Origin: a virus
Lineage: Duplodnaviria; Caudoviricetes
Direction: 5' to 3' (one strand)
Virus record (IMG/VR): IMGVR_UViG_3300022891_000004
Span: 1-48,260 of that record
DNA length: 48,260 nt
In this document: positions 15,165 through 47,618 of the stretch, in pieces
Layout: each line of letters begins with the position of its first letter
How positions within the stretch are numbered: the stretch's first letter is position 1
The notes under the pieces: model-generated
What the model saw: the letters and a program-made list of their open reading frames with translations, nothing else
Databases searched by the model: none
Told to the model about the DNA's origin: nothing
Program-made: the position numbers and the translations under genes

Positions 15165-17218
15165 TGCCGACCGTTCCCACACTGCATAACCAGGTTGGAC
15201 TGAATGCGCTGCCGAACGTGCAGCGCCGGCCTTTGCAATCCACCGGCCTTCAGGCGATCGGGGAGGGCCTGCAGAATGTCTCAGGGGTTATTCAGCAGGT
15301 TCAGAAACAAGAACAGCTCAAAGCCGATCGTGCCGCCTTCATGGAGGCGGATCGCACGACCGACACGATTGCCAATGACCTGTATTCAAAGGCCTCCCAG
15401 AAACAGCTGAAAGATGCCATCGGCATCACGCCACAGTCGATCGAGGAATTCGATAAGCGCACCTCAGAGGTGATGGGGTCGCTTCAAACTGATCGGCAGA
15501 AGATGACCTATCGCGAGGCGGTCAATCAACGCCGCTCGCAGTTGCAGCGCTCGATCGAGTCGCACGAGAACAGTCAGCGCGAGACCTATTACGCGAAGTC
15601 CCGGGAGGACTACAAAGACCAGGCGCATGTGAACGCGGTCACGAACTACCAGGACCCGAAGGCGATCGAGTCCGAGATCGATAAGGTGCGCGCCACCGTA
15701 GATCAAACCCCTGGCATCGATGCCGATCAGAAGGCCGCAGAGGTCGGGATTCGCCGCTCCGGGATCTATTCAGGCGTCATCGATCGATACCTCTCGAACG
15801 ATCAGGTCTCCCAGGCGGACGCCTATTACAAGTCCATCAAGGACAAAGTAAACGGCCCCCAGGCCTCGAACATCGAGCGCGCGCTCATCACCGCCAAACA
15901 GAGATTGGAGTCTGAGAAGAAAGCCAAACTGACTGAGATGCGTCAATCTCTTGGCGATCAGCTTCAGGACATTCACGCCGCGGCTCAAATGGGTGTGCCC
16001 GTCACGCAAGTCCCCCCGCGCGCGGTGCTCGAGGCGGTGTTCGGCAAGTACGAGGGCGGACAGAAGTATGAGACCGCCCAGAAGATGGCGGATCTGTCGG
16101 TCGAGGTGAATGCGCTGCATGACCTGTCGGCCGAGGATCTGTATCAGCAAACCACGCAGTACAAGCCCGTAAAGGTAGAAGGGGCGGCGGAAGCCGCGCA
16201 GATCACTCAGTTCATGTCAGGCCGGGTGCAGCAAATCTTACAAGAGCGTGACAAGGATCCGGCCGGCTATCTCGTGCGCCATTCCCCAGCAGTGGCTCAG
16301 GCCTGGGATAACTTCGAGCAGTCCGGGGATGAGGCCTCGCGCGCGGCCTACTTAAAGACCGTGCGCGCCGAGCGCGAGCGCTTACAGATTCCGGGGGACG
16401 ACATCCTCCCCGACACCTACGCGCAAGGGGTTGCAGACCGGCTCAACACTGCGGATGCTCAGAAGCTTGCGACCCTCATCGAGCGCGAGGCGCAAACCTG
16501 GGGCGCAGACTGGCCGGCGGTTCAAGGCCAGCTTGCGGGTAAGATCTCAGACACCGCTGCCGTCATTTCATCCGGGATCCCGCGCGGGGCCGCCGTGCAA
16601 TTGGCCGCCACCGCGAATCTCAAGGAGAACGAGCTTAAAGCGCTTCTGCCGCCGGGCACGACGTGGCCTGCCGTTGAGGCGGCCGTTGATCAGACTTTCG
16701 AGAGCTTCAAGTCATCTCTGCCGATCGAGGCTGCGCAAACCTGGAATGCGTTTCGCGACTCTGGGACACGGCTCGCCGTGCAGTACATGCATCAAGGCAT
16801 GAGCCAAAGCAATGCGATCGACAAGGCTTACAAGGATCTCGTGCGGGATCAGATCGTCGAGTTTCGCGCCGCGCCCTTTCGCGTCCCGCCCACGGAGAAC
16901 AAAGAGCAGATCGAGACAGGCGCCCGGCAGGCGGTTCAAGAATTTGTAACCCCTCCCGGGACGGTGATTCCTTCCGGGGCTTTCACAGCCGAGGAATATC
17001 AAAGCCAGCTCCAGGACTATGTGCGCGAAAACGGCTACTGGGTCACGCGCCCCGATGCCAAGGGGCTGCGCCTGTATGTGGATGGTGGGCCGCTGGCAGG
17101 CGTTGACGGGCCGGTTCAATACACCTGGGAGCAACTGCGCACCTACGGAGACAAGGGAGCAGAGGCCTCCAGAAAGCGCCTCAGCGATGAGATCACGCGA
17201 CGCAAGGAAGCGCGCTGA
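15164..17218 (+). CDS. Internal virion (ejection) protein
   Basis: Long helical ORF starting MPTVPT in the ejection cluster; ATG overlaps the upstream TGA. Confidence 0.7.
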   Translation: MPTVPTLHNQVGLNALPNVQRRPLQSTGLQAIGEGLQNVSGVIQQVQKQEQLKADRAAFMEADRTTDTIANDLYSKASQKQLKDAIGITPQSIEEFDKRTSEVMGSLQTDRQKMTYREAVNQRRSQLQRSIESHENSQRETYYAKSREDYKDQAHVNAVTNYQDPKAIESEIDKVRATVDQTPGIDADQKAAEVGIRRSGIYSGVIDRYLSNDQVSQADAYYKSIKDKVNGPQASNIERALITAKQRLESEKKAKLTEMRQSLGDQLQDIHAAAQMGVPVTQVPPRAVLEAVFGKYEGGQKYETAQKMADLSVEVNALHDLSAEDLYQQTTQYKPVKVEGAAEAAQITQFMSGRVQQILQERDKDPAGYLVRHSPAVAQAWDNFEQSGDEASRAAYLKTVRAERERLQIPGDDILPDTYAQGVADRLNTADAQKLATLIEREAQTWGADWPAVQGQLAGKISDTAAVISSGIPRGAAVQLAATANLKENELKALLPPGTTWPAVEAAVDQTFESFKSSLPIEAAQTWNAFRDSGTRLAVQYMHQGMSQSNAIDKAYKDLVRDQIVEFRAAPFRVPPTENKEQIETGARQAVQEFVTPPGTVIPSGAFTAEEYQSQLQDYVRENGYWVTRPDAKGLRLYVDGGPLAGVDGPVQYTWEQLRTYGDKGAEASRKRLSDEITRRKEAR

Positions 17219-18879
17219 TGCCGATCGTGTATCGCGACCTCATTCGCAGTGAGCCGCGGCTGGGGACGGATGTTCCCGCCTCACGCCGCGATGTGCTCAC
17301 CGAGCAGTTCGCGATGACCTATGAAGAGAATCCCATTCAGGCCTTCAAGCGCTACAACGCGCTGCGCGAGGATGAGCGCACGGGACCGGTGCTCGAGGCC
17401 ACCGCGGCGCGTCAGAAGCTCAAGGACGCAGGACTCGACCGGGATCTCAAGGTGAATGATGCCGGCATTACGCAGGCCGCGCTCGCAACGCTCATGGATC
17501 GCAAGCGCACCGAGCTTAAACGGCAAGAGATCTTCTCGCGCGCGCAAGGCGGGGCGGGAGAGTTCACGCAGCGCTTAGCGCTCTCGATCGCGACCACCAT
17601 GGCGGACCCGATCTCCGCGGGCTTGAACTTCGTGCCCGTCGTGGGACAGGTACGCTATGCGCGCTGGCTTGCCGAGGCCGGCTCGATCGGCGGGCGTATC
17701 GCCGTCCGCGCAGGCGTCGGGGCGGCGGAGGGCGCGGTGGGAGCTGCCCTTCAAGAGCCCTTCATCTACGGCATGCGCACCCAGGAGCAGGCGGACTATT
17801 CCTCCGCCGACAGCCTTCTCAACATCGCGCTCGGTGGCATCGCAGGCGGTGGCCTGCATTCCTTCGTCGGCGCCGCCGGAGATCTCATCGCCCGGCGTCT
17901 GGATATGGCGCCCACCGCACGGGTGGAGCCCCCTGCACGCACGGAGCCCACCCTTGGGGATGCGACCCGCATCACGCCCCGTGACGAGCCGCCCCTTGAG
18001 GCACGAGACTTCACGCCCCTTGAGCGCACGATCGATGAGCTGCCGCCCCAGGCGCGCGAGGCTGCGCTGCGAGCTGCTGTCGGTCAGGCCGTGGAAGGCC
18101 GCATGATCGATGTCGAGAACATCCTGACGCCGCAGATGAGGCAGACGGCGACCCCTGAATTCCAGAGCTGGTTTAGAGACTCAAAGGTCATCGATGAGGC
18201 AGGCGAGCCGCTTCGGGTGTACCACGGCACGCAGCAAGACATCTCCGAGTTCAACACGCCCTCCTGGTTTACCTCTGATCCGGGTGAGGCCTCTCGCTAT
18301 GCCACGGGATCCCGCGCCGAGCGGGCCGGAGCCAATGTCGTTCCGGCTTACATATCGATCAAAAATCCGTACAAGGCCACGTACTCTGAGATCATCAGCG
18401 CAAGCTCTGAGCTTCGCGCGAAGCTCCAGGCCCAAGGCTATGACGGCATGATGATGCATCAGACCCCGATGCTGGCGCGCGATGGGAAGTCATTTCTTCC
18501 AGATCAGTTGGAGCGTGATTGGTACGTGCCGTTTGATTCGGCGCAGGTGAAATCCGCCGTAGGAAACTCCGGGCGCTTTGATCCGAAAGCTGCAAGCCTC
18601 ACGGACCCGCGCGCGCAAGCGGACTTCAAAGCCACGATGGACCACGCCGAGGAAGTCCTCGCACGCGAGCCCAAGCCCAAGGGCACCGTGACCGAATCAG
18701 AAGCCCGTCTTCAGATGGCGCAGGACGAGGCGGATCTTGCCGTCGCAGATGCCACCGCATCGGCCAAGCGCTTAGGCTCAGAATTCAACGAGGATGACAT
18801 CGCGGAGAATCTTGAGAAGGCGGAGCGTTGGGCGCGGGTCGCTGAGCTTGCGACCGTGTGTCTGACGAGAGGGGACTGA
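17218..18879 (+). CDS. Ejection protein carrying an ART-PolyVal-like ADP-ribosyltransferase domain
   Basis: Gly/Ala-rich hydrophobic segment, then TPEFQSWFRDSKV...PLRVYHGT...WFTSD...A..YA...V.PAY.SIKNP...GYDG...F...QVKSA.GN.G.FD. Confidence 0.8.
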   Translation: MPIVYRDLIRSEPRLGTDVPASRRDVLTEQFAMTYEENPIQAFKRYNALREDERTGPVLEATAARQKLKDAGLDRDLKVNDAGITQAALATLMDRKRTELKRQEIFSRAQGGAGEFTQRLALSIATTMADPISAGLNFVPVVGQVRYARWLAEAGSIGGRIAVRAGVGAAEGAVGAALQEPFIYGMRTQEQADYSSADSLLNIALGGIAGGGLHSFVGAAGDLIARRLDMAPTARVEPPARTEPTLGDATRITPRDEPPLEARDFTPLERTIDELPPQAREAALRAAVGQAVEGRMIDVENILTPQMRQTATPEFQSWFRDSKVIDEAGEPLRVYHGTQQDISEFNTPSWFTSDPGEASRYATGSRAERAGANVVPAYISIKNPYKATYSEIISASSELRAKLQAQGYDGMMMHQTPMLARDGKSFLPDQLERDWYVPFDSAQVKSAVGNSGRFDPKAASLTDPRAQADFKATMDHAEEVLAREPKPKGTVTESEARLQMAQDEADLAVADATASAKRLGSEFNEDDIAENLEKAERWARVAELATVCLTRGD

Positions 18880-35653: not shown

Positions 35654-35943
35654 GACTGACGCCCCTCTAGCCACGCGCTTACCTTCTCGCGTGACCCGTG
35701 ACAGACGGCTGGCGCGTAGTTATAGAGGAACGTGCCGTAAGCTTTCAGGCAGTTGATATTGGTGTCGTCTGCTGTACCGAGCGCTCTCATCAAATCGTTC
35801 TCGAGCACAGCCATCAGGAAGTCCCCTGGCGCTATGCGATCAACTAGGTATCTCGTAAGGCCCGGGATCATGTATACAGGGATCTCGCATTTCTGAGCGC
35901 GTAGGGCGTAATACTTTATGAAGTCCTCGTGTTCGGTGCTCAT
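35650..35943 (-). CDS. Conserved phage hypothetical protein
   Basis: GLTRYL....PGDFLMAVLENDL..A...AD..N...GS.E.V..W. Confidence 0.7.
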   Translation of the reverse strand: MSTEHEDFIKYYALRAQKCEIPVYMIPGLTRYLVDRIAPGDFLMAVLENDLMRALGTADDTNINCLKAYGTFLYNYAPAVCHGSREKVSAWLEGRQS

Positions 35944-36170
35944 GGTGGTGGCAACTCCGCTTCTGCTTTATCCGCCCATAGAAGCGCGGTTTCTAGCTGT
36001 GTGATCGCTACAGACATGGCGCGGGATGCGTCTGGATAGCCAAACGTCGTGAACAGCTCCCTCACAGTGCACAGATCAGACAGCGCTCGAATCATGTCAA
36101 CGCGCGCGCAGTTGAGTAGAAAACGTGAGTTAGTTTCTTCCACGTTGGGTTGTTCTATATCGTTGTTCAT
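35940..36170 (-). CDS. Hypothetical protein
   Basis: SRAMSVAITQLETALLWADKA; SD GAGG. Confidence 0.55.
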   Translation of the reverse strand: MNNDIEQPNVEETNSRFLLNCARVDMIRALSDLCTVRELFTTFGYPDASRAMSVAITQLETALLWADKAEAELPPP

Positions 36171-37677: not shown

Positions 37678-37694
37678 GTTTGCGTGTCCTAGTG

Positions 37695-37744
37695 GGTTCA
37701 GAGTCGAGAGCCTGCTTACGCGGACTCTCTGCTATGAATCAACC
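37695..37744 (-). repeat. 50-nt structured intergenic element, copy A
   Basis: (-) GGTTGATTCATAGCAG-agagtccgc GTAA gcaggctct-CGACTCTGAACC. Confidence 0.85.
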
Positions 37745-37900
37745 CTGGTACCCGGAAGATCTGCCGTACTGGGCACCAGCGGCTATGCGTTTGTAGATGC
37801 GGCGCAGGTCGCTGAACGTAGCTGGCTCGCGAGCGCTGAAGTTCAGGCGCATCGCGGCACGCCAATCACACATCTGGCCATATTCGAAACGCTTAAACAT
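37739..37900 (-). CDS. Early hypothetical protein (53 aa)
   Basis: SD GGAG; MFKRFEYGQMCDW...; stop TGA lies inside repeat A. Confidence 0.6.
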   Translation of the reverse strand: MFKRFEYGQMCDWRAAMRLNFSAREPATFSDLRRIYKRIAAGAQYGRSSGYQG

Positions 37901-38114
37901 GTTGAGTCTCCAGTGGTTCAGAGTCGAGGGTTAGGGCAAGGAGAAGAAATTCTTCAGACACTGCGTCTATTTGCTGATCGTCGCACGCACTATCTACCAC
38001 CGCTTCGATGCTCAGGCCCCAGTGAGAGAACATCAGGCAACGGTCACGGAAATCTTCGTACAACGCTTGCGCGATTGCTGGTGTGAGATCGTTGATGTGG
38101 TGGATCGTGAGCAT
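37893..38114 (-). CDS. Early hypothetical protein
   Basis: Follows repeat B; 3' end overlaps the partial repeat. Confidence 0.55.
   Translation of the reverse strand: MLTIHHINDLTPAIAQALYEDFRDRCLMFSHWGLSIEAVVDSACDDQQIDAVSEEFLLLALTLDSEPLETQHV
37915..37926 (-). repeat. Partial copy (12-nt flank) of the 50-nt element
   Basis: GGTTCAGAGTCG on the + strand. Confidence 0.7.
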
Positions 38115-38133
38115 CTGCGTGTCTTTGCTGATT

Positions 38134-38183
38134 GGTTCAGAGTCGGAGGCCCGATTGCTCAGGCCTCCTGCTATGAATCAACC
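38134..38183 (-). repeat. 50-nt structured intergenic element, copy B
   Basis: (-) GGTTGATTCATAGCAG-gaggcctga GCAA tcgggcctc-CGACTCTGAACC. Confidence 0.85.
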
Positions 38184-38374: not shown

Positions 38375-38404
38375 ACTGTAAACCTACTTGCGTACGCTTG
38401 TCAA
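38375..38404 (-). promoter_or_regulatory. Leftward sigma70-type promoter
   Basis: TTGACA-N18-TACAGT on the - strand. Confidence 0.7.
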
Positions 38405-38426
38405 CATCAATGTGGACGAGTATATT
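38398..38426 (+). promoter_or_regulatory. Rightward sigma70-type promoter (predicts a leaderless HTH mRNA)
   Basis: TTGTCA-N17-TATATT; ATG begins at 38433. Confidence 0.65.
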
Positions 38427-38432
38427 CACCAC

Positions 38433-38651
38433 ATGATTAATCCAATAGAAATGCTGCGTACGCACGTAGGCACACGCTCCAAACGAGAAGTGGCACGCGA
38501 GATGGGAATCTCAGCAACGCTGCTTTGCGATACGTTAAATGGAAAGCGGACGCCAGGCCGGAAGATTCTGAATTATCTGGGCCTGAAACGTACCCAGGAA
38601 GTGAGCTACGAGGTTAACGGCGCGCCGAAGAACAAGCGCAGACGCTCGTGA
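38433..38651 (+). CDS. XRE/Cro-like HTH regulator
   Basis: [33 protein letters not shown]. Confidence 0.85.
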
Positions 38652-38962
38652 TCTGCCCCAGCTGTCAGGGCGAAACGAACGTCATCGACAGCCGCGCCTA
38701 TTCCGGCTCCGTGCGCAGGCGCCGCGAGTGCATTAAGTGTGAGCAACGATTCACGACGTTCGAGGTGGTCTCGACAGGCTTAGGAGGACATCCTAATCAC
38801 CTGATCATCTTGGATAAGCGCACGTTCTCAGATCAGATTCGCAGCATGTTTGAGCTGACCCTCAATGAGGTGTTGCTCAAGAGTCGGCCAATCTTTCCAG
38901 ACAGCCAGTCAGAGGAATCATCAGCACAAACGAAAAAGCCCACCGGTGAGGGTGAGCCTTGA
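38648..38962 (+). CDS. NrdR-type Zn-ribbon protein lacking the ATP-cone
   Basis: MICPSC...TNVIDSR.....[18 protein letters not shown]. Confidence 0.8.
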
Positions 38963-38987
38963 CGTGCCGAGGGGCGAGAGATATGTT
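38959..38987 (+). promoter_or_regulatory. Sigma70-type promoter upstream of the structured non-coding region
   Basis: TTGACG-N17-TATGTT. Confidence 0.65.
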
Positions 38988-38993
38988 CGGACC

Positions 38994-39308
38994 GCGACGA
39001 ACGAACGGGAGTAATCCTACTGACTTGCATTCACAAGTCAATAGTTGAACGACCGTTCAACTGCCGCCTTGCCTTAGGCGGGTCAACCATAGCTAAGACA
39101 TGTTTTAAGCCTCACTAGGGGAATCTGCCACAGAGGCTAGGGCCGAATGTAATCGCTGGCCCAAGGCAGCACGGGGCGTCAGACCGTGAAAGTGAAGCGA
39201 GAGATGGAGTCTGTTCGCACGACCATCCCTGATGGCTCTACAGGGCACTGAGAGGTCAGGATGAATTCCCATTCTCGCTTTCTGCGGGAATGGGGTGAAT
39301 TCGCCTGA
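38994..39308 (+). ncRNA. Candidate structured ncRNA / replication origin
   Basis: No credible ORF; about nine consecutive stem-loops downstream of a promoter. Confidence 0.55.
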
Positions 39309-39333
39309 GTGGATACGAGATAAGAGGTCAGCA

Positions 39334-39627
39334 ATGAAAATCACTAGAAGCTGGATTAGCGAAAATGGGGCTTGGACTGCGGCAATGTTGGCCGAGGTGG
39401 GAATTGAATGGCCACCGTTCAAAGGTTGGGTGGATTCTCTGGTGGGTAGAGAGATCACCGAGGCACAAAGAATCAATATAGAAGGATTGAATCGTCAGAG
39501 AAACGATAAGCACGCGGCGGATGCGGTGAGGCATGCAGCAAAAGCCGAACAGGTTTATTACACGAGACCAGACGGCAAAGGGGATTGGGTTGGATCATGG
39601 GAGAAACCTGAAGGCTGGTTCTCATGA
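39334..39627 (+). CDS. Hypothetical protein
   Basis: SD GAGG; NGAWTAAMLAEVGIEWPP.KGW...L.GREIT. Confidence 0.6.
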   Translation: MKITRSWISENGAWTAAMLAEVGIEWPPFKGWVDSLVGREITEAQRINIEGLNRQRNDKHAADAVRHAAKAEQVYYTRPDGKGDWVGSWEKPEGWFS

Positions 39628-40094
39628 AACTCCCACCTGATTGGCTCGAACAACTCAAATCCGAATACCCCCAACGCTACGGACCTCAAGGCTGGTTGAG
39701 AGTCAGAACGATCCTTCCTCAGTCCATCAGTGCAGGCGCTACTTGGGAGCAGATCCTCTCAGGTACGCGGGCTTACAGAGAATACTGTCTCGCCACCGGA
39801 TCAATCGGCACGCAACACGTCAAGTCCGCTTCAACCTTCTTCGACTACCGCACCCAAGGGTGGACGGAGGACTACGCCCCACCTGAGAAACCACAGAGCG
39901 CCGCAGAACAGAAGCTCAATGCAAGGTGGGAGCAATTAAAAGCCCGCGCCCTATCGATCGGATTCAGATCCCCGATGGCGGTTGAGAGCTGCGATGTGTT
40001 TGAAACCTTCCTGAAGCGTGCCGAGCGCGAGCAACCAAGTCCCGTGCAGAACGTCGTAAGCCTATTGGCTCGTGATAAGTCGATCAGGAGTTGA
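39624..40094 (+). CDS. Replication initiator C-terminal-domain-like protein
   Basis: YPQRYG...GATWEQILSGTRAY..YC...GTQHVKSASTFF resembles the C-terminal part of phage replisome organisers. Confidence 0.5.
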   Translation: MKLPPDWLEQLKSEYPQRYGPQGWLRVRTILPQSISAGATWEQILSGTRAYREYCLATGSIGTQHVKSASTFFDYRTQGWTEDYAPPEKPQSAAEQKLNARWEQLKARALSIGFRSPMAVESCDVFETFLKRAEREQPSPVQNVVSLLARDKSIRS

Positions 40095-40114
40095 CATACG
40101 CAAGCGCTTGCGTA
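40091..40114 (+). promoter_or_regulatory. TTGACA followed by a perfect 18-bp palindrome (operator-like)
   Basis: TTGACA 40091-40096, then TACGCAAGC|GCTTGCGTA 40097-40114; -10 not clear. Confidence 0.6.
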
Positions 40115-40288
40115 ATCATAAAAGCGTTAGGTGATAGAGCTAGTTTACATCTACTCATCAAGGGTGTTTGCAGTCATGCAGATGGAGCCGTTAGGAGCGG
40201 TCGCCGGCACAGCCGGACGGCACATATAACCGGCCAGCGCGCCGCCTACTACTGGCGCGCTGGTCTGAGCTACGAGAAGGCATGAGTC

Positions 40289-40606
40289 ATGACGACCATA
40301 GAAGACTTAAAAGCTTCTTACGATTGGGAAGCTGCATTCGGGTACGCGGATTTTGAAATTTCTGATGTTGCAGAAATCCGCAACGCGATTGAAGGAGAGA
40401 ACGACGCTGATGATTGGATCATCTGGGGAAAGCTGAATAACGGCGATTTTTTCTTTCTTAGCGCTGGGTGTGATTATGCAGGCTGGGATTGCCGAGCTAG
40501 TGGCCACTCTCATCGCTTTCCCACAGAACAAGAGTTAATCCTGATGGGCATGGATCGTGGCGCGCGTGAGCGATTCGGGTTACTGACGCCAGGGGAAACG
40601 GTTTGA
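40289..40606 (+). CDS. Hypothetical protein
   Basis: EGENDADDWI..G.L..G..FFLSAGCDYAGWDC. Confidence 0.7.
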   Translation: MTTIEDLKASYDWEAAFGYADFEISDVAEIRNAIEGENDADDWIIWGKLNNGDFFFLSAGCDYAGWDCRASGHSHRFPTEQELILMGMDRGARERFGLLTPGETV

Positions 40607-44472: not shown

Positions 44473-46863
44473 GTGTCGATTGGGATTCTCATCGCGACAT
44501 GCCTGAGGACGCCCTCCGGCCGCTACGATCTCAAATGGCGCAACGGCATCGAGACGCCCTCACCGCCTGAGATCTTGATTGGGACGATCCCCGCTCAGTC
44601 ACTGACCGCAGGCTCAGCCTACTCGCAAGACTTCTCTGTCTACGTCTCCGGCACCGATAAGCCGGGGGCAACCTATGCGATTGAGGCGGTCAGCGGCACG
44701 CTCGCCGCGGTGGATCTTATCTTCAGCGGCTCGACGCTCTCGGGCGCGACCCCGGATGTCGGCACGTTCACCGGCCGGCTCGCCGTGACCAAGAGCGGCT
44801 ATACGTTCCGCTCCGACCCGTTCCTTCTGACCTGCACTGCCCTTCCGGTCACAGACACCCAGGCACCCGCAGTCCCCCCGCCGCCCACCGCAACGGTTAA
44901 TAGCGCGACCTCGATTACGGTTGCGGGCTATCACTCGATGGATGTCGCCACCGCCTCGGTCACAGCCTCCGGGATATCCGCGCTGATCCTGCAACGCGCC
45001 ACCGTCATCAATGGCGTGGAAGGTGCCTACAGCGATCGCACCACGATCACCGCGCCCTCGGCCGGATTCAAAGGGCTGCTGGTGGAGGCGACGGTGGGTG
45101 CTCCGGCCTCCGTGAGCACTGCGCAGAATGGGGCGAATTACACGATCGTGTCGGGCCTGGGGAATATCTCCGGTAGCAGCGACAATTTCATCTGTCGCTA
45201 TGCGACGGTGAGCGGCAACTTTCGGGTGCTCGCGCAGTTGTCGGACTTCGACAATCAGGGCAACCCCTCGGCTGCGACTCAGATCATGATTCGCAGTAGC
45301 TTAGATCCGAACGCGGCGTTCTATCGGGCGCGGCGCTTCAATGCGGCCTCAGGTCTTGGAATCGGCACGGCCTGGCGGCCGACCACGGGAGGCGGCGCCA
45401 CGAGTTCCGCCGCCGTCACGGCCAACATCCCCGCTGATCCGTGGGTGCTCGTTGAGAAGGTGGGCAATGTTCTCACGACGCAGTTTCTCGACAACTCAGG
45501 AGTGTGGGTCGCCGCCGGCACCGCGACCATCACGATGGCAGATCCGGTGCTGGTGTGCGTCTCCGGGATCCGCGCAGCCTCCGGAACGCCCGTCACGTTC
45601 CCGATCAACAATCTCATCATCGATCAGCTGCCCTCCTGGACGTACGCGGATACCTCGGTTGCCGCCACGAGCTACCGCTATAAGTGCAAAGCAAGGGATC
45701 AGGCCTCGAACACGACGGGCGCCGGCATCGCAAGCGCGCTCTACACGACGACGGGCGCCGTCACGAACGCGATCCGCTGGCATCCCGGTCATTACATGCT
45801 GCTCGATGGGATCAAAAGCTCTCCTTCCCGCCGGGCAACGCACATCGCGCAGATCGCAGAGCTTGCGAACGAGCCCACCATCAAGGGCGTGAAGCTGCAA
45901 CTGTATTGGGGCGATGTCGAGAGCGGCACGACGCAAGGCAACGCAAGCTACCAACCGGGCTTTGACATCCTCGATGAGTACCTGGATGCGCTCGGCAACA
46001 TCGGCAAGAAAATGATCTTGTCGATTCAGGACCGTATTTTCGGAGGGCTAAGCCCCTCGAACCTGACGAATGGTTACTACTTCCCGCAGTACGTCACGAC
46101 CCAGGAGCCTGCGGTCTCACTCGATGCACCGGGCTACACGACACGTGTGTGGACGTCCTTTACGAATGGACGGCTGATCGCGCTCACCCAGGCGCTCGGG
46201 GCGCGCTACAACTCTGATACGCGATGGGAGATGTACCAGGGCGAGGAAACTGCGCTCGGTCTTGCGAACCCCTCAGGAGTCGGCTACTCAGCCTCCGCGC
46301 ACGCAACCCAACTAAAGCTCTTCATCACTCAGATGGTGAGCGCCTGGCCGAACACGCTCACCCGTGTATCGACCAACTTCATGAACGCCTATGGATCGTT
46401 CAGCGGGGATACGGCGATGGCGGACCTGCTCGCCTATATGGCCGATCGCAAGGTCGCAGCCGGTGGGCCGGACACGATTCCCAATCAGTCGATTGCCGCC
46501 AACCGCATCTTTGCGGGCATCGGTGGATACACCAACTGGCGCGGCAAGATTCCGTGGGTCGGGGAGGTTCAAAGTCCTTCGATGGGCGGCAAGGAGGGCA
46601 ATTTCACGCCCGCGCAAATCTGGATCACGCAGCGCGATGGACAGCTCGCCTCCAATCCAAACATCCCGCCCATGGAAATCTCTCACATGCTTTGGTATCG
46701 CAAGGACTGGCTCCAGGGGACGAGCAACAGCGACATGTACTGGAAGCAAACGACCGTCAACGGCTTCGTGCATCCGGGCATTCTTGAGTACATCAGGAGC
46801 ATCAATGGCGCGATGCCGCGCACGGCCTGCCCCGATCTATTCAACGCGTGCGCCACGGCATGA
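44473..46863 (+). CDS. Multidomain Ig/FN3 + lectin-like + glycoside-hydrolase-like protein
   Basis: Ig-like N-terminus, DTQAP..P FN3 start, ConA-like beta sandwich, C-terminal RWHPGHY...YWGDVE...RL..L..ALGARYN...EETA TIM-barrel-like region. Confidence 0.65.
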   Translation: MSIGILIATCLRTPSGRYDLKWRNGIETPSPPEILIGTIPAQSLTAGSAYSQDFSVYVSGTDKPGATYAIEAVSGTLAAVDLIFSGSTLSGATPDVGTFTGRLAVTKSGYTFRSDPFLLTCTALPVTDTQAPAVPPPPTATVNSATSITVAGYHSMDVATASVTASGISALILQRATVINGVEGAYSDRTTITAPSAGFKGLLVEATVGAPASVSTAQNGANYTIVSGLGNISGSSDNFICRYATVSGNFRVLAQLSDFDNQGNPSAATQIMIRSSLDPNAAFYRARRFNAASGLGIGTAWRPTTGGGATSSAAVTANIPADPWVLVEKVGNVLTTQFLDNSGVWVAAGTATITMADPVLVCVSGIRAASGTPVTFPINNLIIDQLPSWTYADTSVAATSYRYKCKARDQASNTTGAGIASALYTTTGAVTNAIRWHPGHYMLLDGIKSSPSRRATHIAQIAELANEPTIKGVKLQLYWGDVESGTTQGNASYQPGFDILDEYLDALGNIGKKMILSIQDRIFGGLSPSNLTNGYYFPQYVTTQEPAVSLDAPGYTTRVWTSFTNGRLIALTQALGARYNSDTRWEMYQGEETALGLANPSGVGYSASAHATQLKLFITQMVSAWPNTLTRVSTNFMNAYGSFSGDTAMADLLAYMADRKVAAGGPDTIPNQSIAANRIFAGIGGYTNWRGKIPWVGEVQSPSMGGKEGNFTPAQIWITQRDGQLASNPNIPPMEISHMLWYRKDWLQGTSNSDMYWKQTTVNGFVHPGILEYIRSINGAMPRTACPDLFNACATA

Positions 46864-47618
46864 CGATCACCTTTCATGGCGCCACCTCAACGCCCACCGA
46901 CAACGGTCTCAATGATGATGCGGCCGATGTGATCGTGACCCCGCCGGCCTCCATGGCGAACGGCATGCTCGCCTACGCGCATGTGAATCACCGCTCGAAC
47001 GGCGCCACGCTCACAAACGTCATCACGGGTGGACAGACTTGGACGGCGGAGACCAACCGCGCGAACGGCACGAGTTCTGCCTACCGGAATTTCTGGACGA
47101 CCTTCAATGGGACGTGGGCGGCGGATCCCACCTTTCACACGAACGTCACGCAGACCTCAGCGCTCACGGGGATCCTGCTCGCATTTTCCTGCACGAGTGG
47201 TGTGTGGGCGATCGATCAGATTGAGCAGACCGTGGGGTTCACCGCTCCGGGCTCTCCCTTTGATGTGAGCCGCGCGGGACAAACTCCCACGAACGCAGAC
47301 TCGGTCACGATCGCAGGCTTTCACACGACGAGTGATGCGAACACCTGGGCGCTACAAACCGCCGGTTGGACCGTGGCGCCGTCCGCGCAGATTCGCAACA
47401 CCCAGGGCGCCGGCACCTCAACCCAGCTCGCCTACCTGATTCAATCGAGCGCTGCAGCGACGGGCGCGGTCGTCTCGCGCCAGAATGCAGCATTGGCCGG
47501 TGTGACCTGGATCCAAACTTTCTATGAGGTTCCTGGCGCCTCCGGTCAGCCCGCCTATTCTCGCGATCAATCCATCTCGTTTCTCGGCAGATCCTTCGCC
47601 GGCCCTCAACTCTGGTGA
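46860..47618 (+). CDS. Thr-rich beta-sandwich putative virion protein
   Basis: Beta-strand/Thr-rich composition; ATGA overlap. Confidence 0.6.
   Translation: MTITFHGATSTPTDNGLNDDAADVIVTPPASMANGMLAYAHVNHRSNGATLTNVITGGQTWTAETNRANGTSSAYRNFWTTFNGTWAADPTFHTNVTQTSALTGILLAFSCTSGVWAIDQIEQTVGFTAPGSPFDVSRAGQTPTNADSVTIAGFHTTSDANTWALQTAGWTVAPSAQIRNTQGAGTSTQLAYLIQSSAAATGAVVSRQNAALAGVTWIQTFYEVPGASGQPAYSRDQSISFLGRSFAGPQLW

Follow-up and report, generated by a model that had tools for sequence, protein, structure and literature searches.

The 48,260-nt stretch of viral DNA analysed here (the window) carries, in the initiator slot of its early region, a structured non-coding element that is a member of a real and uncatalogued structured family. 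Members of this family are built around an arrangement that is new: an invariant motif, a variable segment X, a hairpin, a second invariant motif and a copy of the segment, X'. The structure, the anchored guide/target repeat with its wobble asymmetry, and the residence in the initiator slot are shown by the sequences. On the reading that we prefer, and to which we give a probability of about 0.5 from the sequence comparisons, the RNA of the element would act in cis as a ColE1-like R-loop origin with a reprogrammable guide; its transcription, a hybrid at X' and a role in replication would follow the precedent of ColE1.

The window is a complete circular phage record (100% complete, direct terminal repeats, end repeat of 127 nt), and near-identical DNA is present in leaf-litter and soil DNA runs. 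The virion module is of the BPP-1-like podovirus type (head-tail connector, GP7 capsid, Bbp16) and includes a protein with an ART-PolyVal ADP-ribosyltransferase domain (17218-18879, E 1.9e-19), which is likely ejected and is a candidate host-takeover enzyme injected along with the DNA. The early region is lambdoid in style, with ERF, YqaJ and NinB genes running leftward and Cro-like, zinc-ribbon and RusA genes running rightward; the element lies between the Cro-like and the RusA-like gene. The GC-skew minimum near 38 kb falls at the same place as the switch in coding strand and is not independent evidence. Of 318 listed ORFs, 72 were picked as likely genes and scanned against Pfam and PHROGs. 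Among these 72, as the sequence-only reading had claimed for the genome, there is no polymerase, helicase, primase or separate loader, and the same scan found no integrase and no full-length initiator.

The features of the region, with coordinates, strand and basis, are these:
38388..38651, plus: Cro-like HTH gene, start of the rightward early operon (PHROGs HTH/repressor matches, E 9e-5 to 7e-4)
38648..38962, plus: NrdR-type zinc-ribbon gene, ending at the promoter (Pfam PF22811, E 9.5e-15)
38935..38960, minus: terminator-like hairpin with T tract (sequence; related A-tract/hairpins in other members)
38959..38987, plus: sigma70-type promoter candidate TTGACG-17-TATGTT (score 9/12)
38995..39107, plus: variable 5' portion of the RNA, containing three small hairpins at 39021-39081 (fold)
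39108..39227, plus: four covarying stems, 39108-39138, 39140-39162, 39170-39188 and 39203-39227 (helices 1-4, alignment A9)
39234..39249, plus: near-invariant motif 1, GGCTCTACAGGGCACT, a small stem-loop just 5' of the guide (alignment A8, 11 members; folds)
39250..39259, plus: guide segment X, GAGAGGTCAG, which varies among members and also pairs with bases just 5' of motif 1
39256..39308, plus: long hairpin in the guide-to-target interval (-30.1 kcal/mol; covaries)
39311..39321, plus: invariant motif 2, GGATACGAGAT, just 5' of the target, present once in the genome (alignment A8)
39322..39331, plus: target copy X', AAGAGGTCAG, the predicted site of pairing between RNA X and the bottom strand (member comparison)
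39334..39627, plus: 97-aa gene with a conserved GGW-WPP-GW domain (homologues 3' of 6/11 members; alignment A10)
39624..40094, plus: stand-alone C-terminal domain of lambdoid O-type/replisome-organiser initiators (C-terminal parts of PHROGs 270, 3729, 1701 and 26426)

Elsewhere in the window, a short leader, GGTTCAGAGTCG with a ribosome-binding site after it, occurs in three copies within 37690-38150 (near 37700, 37920 and 38140), each preceding a small leftward early gene; a second repeat, CTGCTATGAATCAACC, is found there too, and the two may constitute a recombination or expression cassette. A strong promoter match (10/12) with a ACGCAAGCGCTTGCGT palindrome lies at the stop of ORF 39624 (40091-40119), and related palindromes, which may be operators, flank divergent promoters at 38375-38465. 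A weak match to an Acb2/Tad1 hairpin on the minus strand (35940-36170, E 4e-5, under the cut-off) may mark an anti-defence sponge protein. At 44473-47618, large ORFs of 796 and 256 aa with no Pfam or PHROGs match stand ahead of a PASTA-domain gene; G001, another of the genomes with the element, has a PASTA gene too.

The promoter reported earlier as TTGACG-N17-TATGTT is where it was placed, and by itself it is weak and within chance: sites of this grade number five in the scan and 2.3 +/- 1.7 in shuffles. The strict consensus occurs in only 2/11 family members; the hexamers are found with another spacer in G001/L062, and unchanged in L005. The minus-strand terminator likely ends a short antisense RNA, and we take its position to be like that of lambda oop. 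A similar A-tract/hairpin lies ~230-316 nt 5' of the core in the window, L062, L068, L076 and L055, and a weak minus-strand promoter match (9/12) is seen at 39041-39014. In run X2, a contig from a related phage diverges from the window at 38977, just within the promoter spacer; its 5' leader is a further variant.

Downstream of the promoter the sequence-only reading had seen some 310 nt without a credible ORF, filled by nine stems and preceding the headless initiator. Stops in all six frames over the core bear out the first point, the non-coding length being rather ~345 nt, and the order is right as well, save that the conserved 97-aa gene, which had been overlooked, separates the two. The fold of the non-coding stretch (38990-39333), compared with shuffles as had been proposed, reaches -128.2 kcal/mol (z -3.26), a value that 0/100 shuffles equal. 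All nine stems form at their original coordinates. Covariation is found in five of them, namely helices 1-4 and the long hairpin; the stem at 39227-39245 lacks conservation, and the three hairpins at the 5' end are in the variable part, the first ~75 nt of which are common to the window and L005 before the two diverge. No Rfam 15 family overlaps the element, at the gathering threshold or at E <= 10.

The family consists of the window and 10 other distinct records. In successive pattern scans of viral contigs, members made up 5/6 matches, then 10/54 and then 9/68 (none new), with chance matches accounting for 1/6 and 44/54 in the first two; L026, reached through its headless initiator, has two motifs in common with the element of the window. 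Three candidates, L018, L141 and L157, turned out to be coding or chance. Part of motif 1 was itself the search pattern, so that its invariance is partly by selection, and motif 2 belonged to the pattern of the 54-hit scan; X and X' lay outside all patterns. Alignment A8 holds the 11 distinct members, L071 having been excluded as a near-copy of L062.

Covariation, which the sequence-only reading had set as a test of the element, is strong. Over the six members alignable across 280 nt, RNAalifold predicts 56 pairs, 21 with compensatory change. When six helices are counted separately in these 6 sequences, 91% of cells pair and 16/35 pairs are compensated; 0/500 shuffles score as high and slid controls are 31-45% paired, figures that are not probabilities, since related sequences were compared and their alignment also supplied the structure. 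In alignment A9, 93-100% of cells in helices 1-4 are paired, with compensatory change in 12/20 pairs. In 11/11 members the top strand forms the more stable long hairpin, and stops occur in every frame in most. Model R1, which has 5 pairs only and is mostly sequence, recovers its 11 training members and has no match in L005, L006, L015, L016 or L017. The genome of the window has one copy of the element. A blastn search of the element against GenBank phages returned nothing, one of the L029 copy against phages and plasmids returned only 22-32 nt matches, and full-text searches of the literature found no description of it. The element occurs in unrelated virus types: BPP-1-like, P22-like and filamentous.

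The arrangement common to the members runs from motif 1 through a variable X of 10-14 nt and the long hairpin to motif 2 and X'. In 10/11 members, at the same two anchored sites, a member's own X matches its own X' at 9-10/10 positions counting wobble; compared with the X' of other members, X scores only 1-8, except inside two close groups. The remaining member, L075, matches only with gaps (5/10 ungapped). Leaving aside L075, which needs gaps, and L089, a near-duplicate, nine members of 10 nt each provide 90 positions, of which 76 are identical, 12 differ in the way that wobble permits (G/A or T/C), 0 differ in the opposite way (A/G or C/T) and 2 are transversions. Three further differences in the same direction lie past position 10. 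Six of the 12 fall at position 1 and are probably inherited, which leaves ~7 independent events in the 10 nt and odds of ~1 in 130. The direction is the one expected for pairing of top-strand X with the bottom strand at X', whereas neutral decay of a duplication would go both ways.

X also pairs, in an internal stem, with the bases 5' of motif 1, and this biases X towards G. The match between X and X' continues into positions that are unpaired in this stem, and far past it in L055 (17-18 nt) and L064 (13 nt), so the coupling of X and X' is direct. On these sequence patterns, it is likely that RNA X pairs with the phage's own DNA, the template strand, at X'. In the window X' also serves the next gene as ribosome-binding site. 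By chance, 12/125 window tiles (~10%) contain a wobble repeat that equals that of the window. Contigs of 4 DNA runs contain no joint that skips from X to X', contigs being prone to drop rare forms.

Some ways of accounting for the repeat were set aside. In an RNA switch with X' replacing X in the internal stem, the G-to-A changes would face C, and the match exceeds that stem. Translational bypass from X to X' would need an upstream frame, which is not conserved. Copying of the DGR kind lacks its reverse transcriptase; no reverse transcriptase family (retron, DGR or DRT) was found among the ORFs scanned in the window and G001. A group I or II intron has no Rfam match, and the sense of pairing is wrong for one.

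ORF 39624 had been described as resembling only the C-terminal part of replisome organisers, with no HTH and no iterons, and this is confirmed: its PHROGs matches (E 8e-10 to 3e-5) cover C-terminal parts of the profiles only, and no 9-mer in 38651-40300 has more than two copies. The domain begins at residue 5 and spans residues ~5-110, the upstream frames being closed; a recoded or frameshifted N-terminal half was considered and rejected, as all three types of stop occur in all frames. Of 37 matches in a first profile search, 35 were close proteins of 135-213 aa, and an exhaustive search returned 2936 proteins at E <= 0.001. Among the best 150 of these 2936, the domain comes first in 73 (69 of them starting with Met) and follows at least 80 extra residues in 73, while 4 are intermediate; some of the short proteins may be no more than fragments on contigs. 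In the ESM Atlas there are 29 clusters of hypothetical proteins, among them viral ones of 138-161 aa, and one Phg_2220_C cluster. The AlphaFold model (pLDDT 89) is nearest to phage replication proteins and replisome organisers, the best named Foldseek match being PhiPLPE gp04 (E 1.6e-4); the PDB yields no Foldseek match at E <= 0.001 and no clear match in sequence and fold searches, with a weak resemblance to the C-terminal domain of DnaD (2zc2_B, Z 4.1, rmsd 3.5, 64 aligned, residues 5-87, rank 24). Because relatives with a short head are many and the model is confident and like phage replication proteins, we conclude from the sequences that the headless form is a conserved, widespread stand-alone family rather than a broken gene. 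The C-terminal domain of O and DnaD proteins handles single-stranded DNA or helicase loading.

The element had been thought to be paired with this headless initiator. The pairing holds in the window, L026 and L055/G007 (3/11), with the gene order in L055 as in the window plus one additional gene whose family is unassigned, and it is not obligate. Profile searches of ten member records found the headless initiator in 1, and in 0/3 of those at least 90% complete; no initiator profile matches in G001 (complete), G002 (93%, ending ~1.5 kb past the element) or G008 (100%), all of which carry the RNA. G001 is a complete 41-kb P22-like genome with the RNA between Cro-like and DUF1064 genes, and its scanned ORFs (all but the last 993 nt) include no replication family; an initiator of an unrecognised family may account for this. 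Neither the window nor G001, both complete tailed-phage genomes, has a detected full-length initiator. In G009 a helicase gene of its own lies near the element.

G008 is a filamentous-type provirus with a Zot ATPase, a pilin-like gene and an integrase, in which the folded strand of the element is antisense to the morphogenesis genes. If the coding strand is the one packaged, this orientation is presumably that which a primer for the complementary strand would have. Beside the Zot ATPase is a 557-aa protein (L163, 8365-10038) that neither Pfam nor PHROGs recognises and that may be a rolling-circle initiator of divergent sequence; the replication mode of G008 is accordingly a supposition, its putative Rep matching no family.

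The commonest downstream neighbour of the RNA is the 97-aa gene. It has no Pfam family, and a weak search found no longer proteins containing its domain; a fold comparison, below the threshold of the tool and a lead only, likens its product to a part of an RNase H-family cluster that is not catalytic (TM 0.75, 56 residues). In L016 (3990-4003, against window 39317-39626) the flanks of the gene are joined, and from this comparison the gene looks inserted inside the ribosome-binding region of the initiator. In L139 (2516-1948, minus strand), from an AT-rich phage, motif 1 without hairpin or motif 2 stands directly 5' of a GGW-WPP/HNH nuclease fusion. A T5orf172/GIY-YIG gene replaces the 97-aa homologue downstream in L076 and L089, and an HNH gene lies ~1 kb away in L075; such nuclease-type neighbours fit a mobile element equally well. 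Immediately 5' of the RNA in L026 (2020-2586) is an RNA-ligase-like gene (RLIG1, E 3.8e-10).

The sequence-only reading had suggested collecting the regions upstream of ORF 39624 homologues. Seven headless-initiator loci have upstream DNA, and in four of them (L005, L006, L015 and L016) it is likewise hairpin-rich, as judged from folds made without a shuffle control; these leaders are different from that of the window, and neither R1 nor, with L018 included, Rfam (0 matches) recognises them. L005 has a 99%-identical initiator and the promoter of the window followed by a different structured leader. Because L005 retains promoter and initiator and yet swaps the leader, the slot behaves, in these sequences, as an exchangeable RNA module. 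Leaders of a second family, in L005 (4790-4990) and L015 (2160-2340), share blocks, a 58-nt-spaced repeat and a covarying long-range CCCGTG/CACGGG stem. Those of L006 (1685-1775) and L016 (3905-3995) have long hairpins containing G-rich runs, and in L016 the G run wobble-matches a AGAGATAAGAGGT segment that is itself similar to motif 2/X' of the window. Wobble repeats of 13 nt (L016), 13 nt (L006), 11 nt (L005) and 9 nt (L015) occur in these leaders and are suggestive only, given that ~10% of window tiles have one.

These occurrences bear on the original proposal that a structured RNA replaces the DNA-binding domain of the initiator. Its R-loop version gains from the wobble-asymmetric guide/target repeat. 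Its other version, the RNA as protein scaffold, looks unlikely for a scaffold dedicated to the ORF 39624 protein, since G001, G002 and G008 carry the RNA with no detected initiator and the L005 initiator follows another leader.

ColE1 offers a close likeness: its replicon has no iteron-binding Rep and relies on a structured RNA that is made from a promoter and is active in cis, an upstream segment of which pairs with the downstream template (PMC4412123, PMC3628316). There, the persistent hybrid depends on base pairing between a run of rG in the transcript and a run of dC in the template (PMC4412123); RNase H makes a primer from this hybrid, or the strand that it displaces serves helicase and primase (PMC4412123, PMC3628316). 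In the element the predicted pairing is between X and the template strand of X', which lies downstream, and the minus-strand terminator of the window could end an antisense RNA. The differences are that the element (~340 nt) has no Rfam match to the ColE1 RNAs (the pre-primer RNA II and the antisense RNA I), that its pairing segment is a variable guide of mixed sequence covarying with the target instead of a G run, and that it resides in phages, sometimes with an initiator fragment. On the reading preferred here it works like a ColE1-type origin, yet it is not a ColE1 replicon. The likeness to lambdoid O-type initiators and replisome organisers (Phg_2220_C-like) lies in the genomic slot and in ORF 39624, which corresponds to their C-terminal domain; a full-length relative, L017, is 51% identical over residues 4-73 and has a repeat linker. 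ORF 39624, in contrast, is without the N-terminal DNA-binding domain, the linker and iterons, and the window is without a P-like loader.

No covariance model of ARRPOF, GEBRO or PAGEV, which we take to be in Rfam, matches the element in Rfam 15. These structured motifs of 223-349 nt are tied to plasmid replication, and ARRPOF sits in a region that replicates without a rep gene (Weinberg 2017, PMC5737381). They differ from the element in belonging to plasmids, and the available text of their description mentions no guide/target repeat (PMC5737381). Six supplementary files of a phage RNA catalogue hold no matching motif (PMC10690425). The Betaproteobacteria-1 RNA (RF02932) has a match at E <= 1 in 0/4 records searched (G000, G001, G007 and G011). 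IS110 bridge RNA, TnpB omega-RNA and HEARO have an internal guide that covaries with a nearby DNA target beside an invariant motif. From these RNA-guided mobile systems the element differs in having no cognate recombinase or RuvC nuclease among the members scanned, only small GIY-YIG/HNH genes near 3/11 members, and a target that belongs to the same transcription unit and is only 60-95 nt away on the downstream side.

As an R-loop origin the element might work as follows. Host RNA polymerase would transcribe it, from the early operon or from the local promoter. The RNA would adopt the stems that covary among members, with the bases 5' of motif 1 holding X in a stem. As polymerase passes motif 2 and X', or after cleavage of the long hairpin, X would move onto the bottom DNA strand; this direction of pairing is the one that the wobble asymmetry suggests, and 10-14 bp roughly matches a transcription bubble in size. 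By analogy with ColE1, the hybrid would displace the top strand and provide either a primer or single-stranded DNA on which restart proteins of the host could land. The headless DnaD/O-type domain, where present, might then aid loading of the host helicase as an optional adaptor. Such an R-loop would stand in for the missing DNA-binding half of the initiator, opening or priming replication with no need of a protein domain that binds iterons. In rolling-circle replicons, host-made RNA primers act at the single-strand origin (PMC5714925), and by analogy this would fit G008. We hold only tentatively, and on balance doubt, a wider version, in which a portable RNA with a reprogrammable guide and a PAM-like motif opens its own origin, replaces the HTH/iteron half of lambdoid initiators and has allowed repeated loss of that half, and primes the complementary strand of a filamentous phage.

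The same repeat could serve transcription rather than replication. A cis-acting control RNA, whose X grabs the template strand at X' in the elongation complex and makes polymerase pause, terminate, slip or antiterminate, would set downstream expression; we regard this as unlikely, if well worth considering. The length of the match is close to that of an RNA:DNA hybrid, X' in the window, L076 and L089 overlaps both the ribosome-binding site and the start of the following gene, the downstream genes vary, the element is within the early operon, and none of the 72 window ORFs scanned is an N- or Q-type antiterminator. Control of this kind would, however, leave unexplained the missing full-length initiator in both complete tailed-phage genomes and the unrelated structured leaders before the headless initiators of L005, L006, L015 and L016, and the element of G008 runs antisense to the main operon there. 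A signal at the level of DNA, with the displaced top strand folding as single-stranded DNA (ssi/primosome assembly or slipped strand) and X pairing with X' without RNA, seems improbable to us. There are many conserved G-U pairs, and the long hairpin is weak with DNA energies (-4 to -26 kcal/mol, against -15 to -41 kcal/mol for RNA), even if it is better on the top strand with DNA parameters too (11/11, by small margins). Comparative folding cannot separate RNA from single-stranded DNA (PMC5737381). The poor conservation of the promoter also suits a DNA signal. In G008, on the other hand, the folding strand is the non-coding one, which we take usually not to be the single-stranded one.

Equally improbable, in our estimate, is a mobile or self-targeting element in which X, as in bridge RNA, omega-RNA or HEARO, would be a retargetable guide recording the adjacent site for a nuclease or recombinase in cis or trans. 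Presence in unrelated virus types, GIY-YIG or HNH neighbours in 3/11 members, motif 1 ahead of the GGW-domain/HNH fusion in L139, and a layout of scaffold-guide versus invariant motif-target that presumably resembles TAM/protospacer systems are all in keeping with mobility, as is L005 with the same promoter and initiator but no core. Yet the slot in L005 is not empty and holds another structured leader, no transposase, recombinase, TnpB/IscB or reverse transcriptase matches near any member scanned, and the window's genome has one copy, the sites being confined to intergenic early regions. That the element is the decayed 5' half of an initiator, or plain intergenic DNA with chance hairpins, is hardly credible: repeats equal to that of the window are common enough in its own tiles (12/125), but family-wide compensatory changes refute this explanation, differing sequences form the repeat at the same two anchored sites in 10/11 members, and most members have stops in every frame.

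Many complete metagenomic phage genomes have no initiator, or a fragment only, and an RNA origin driven by the host and seated in the initiator slot would provide a testable reason. The reprogrammable guide, if true, would be a natural case of origin opening specified by RNA and would be useful for orthogonal replicons. Even on the rival readings, an RNA that pairs with its own template strand through a covarying guide would be an unusual mechanism.
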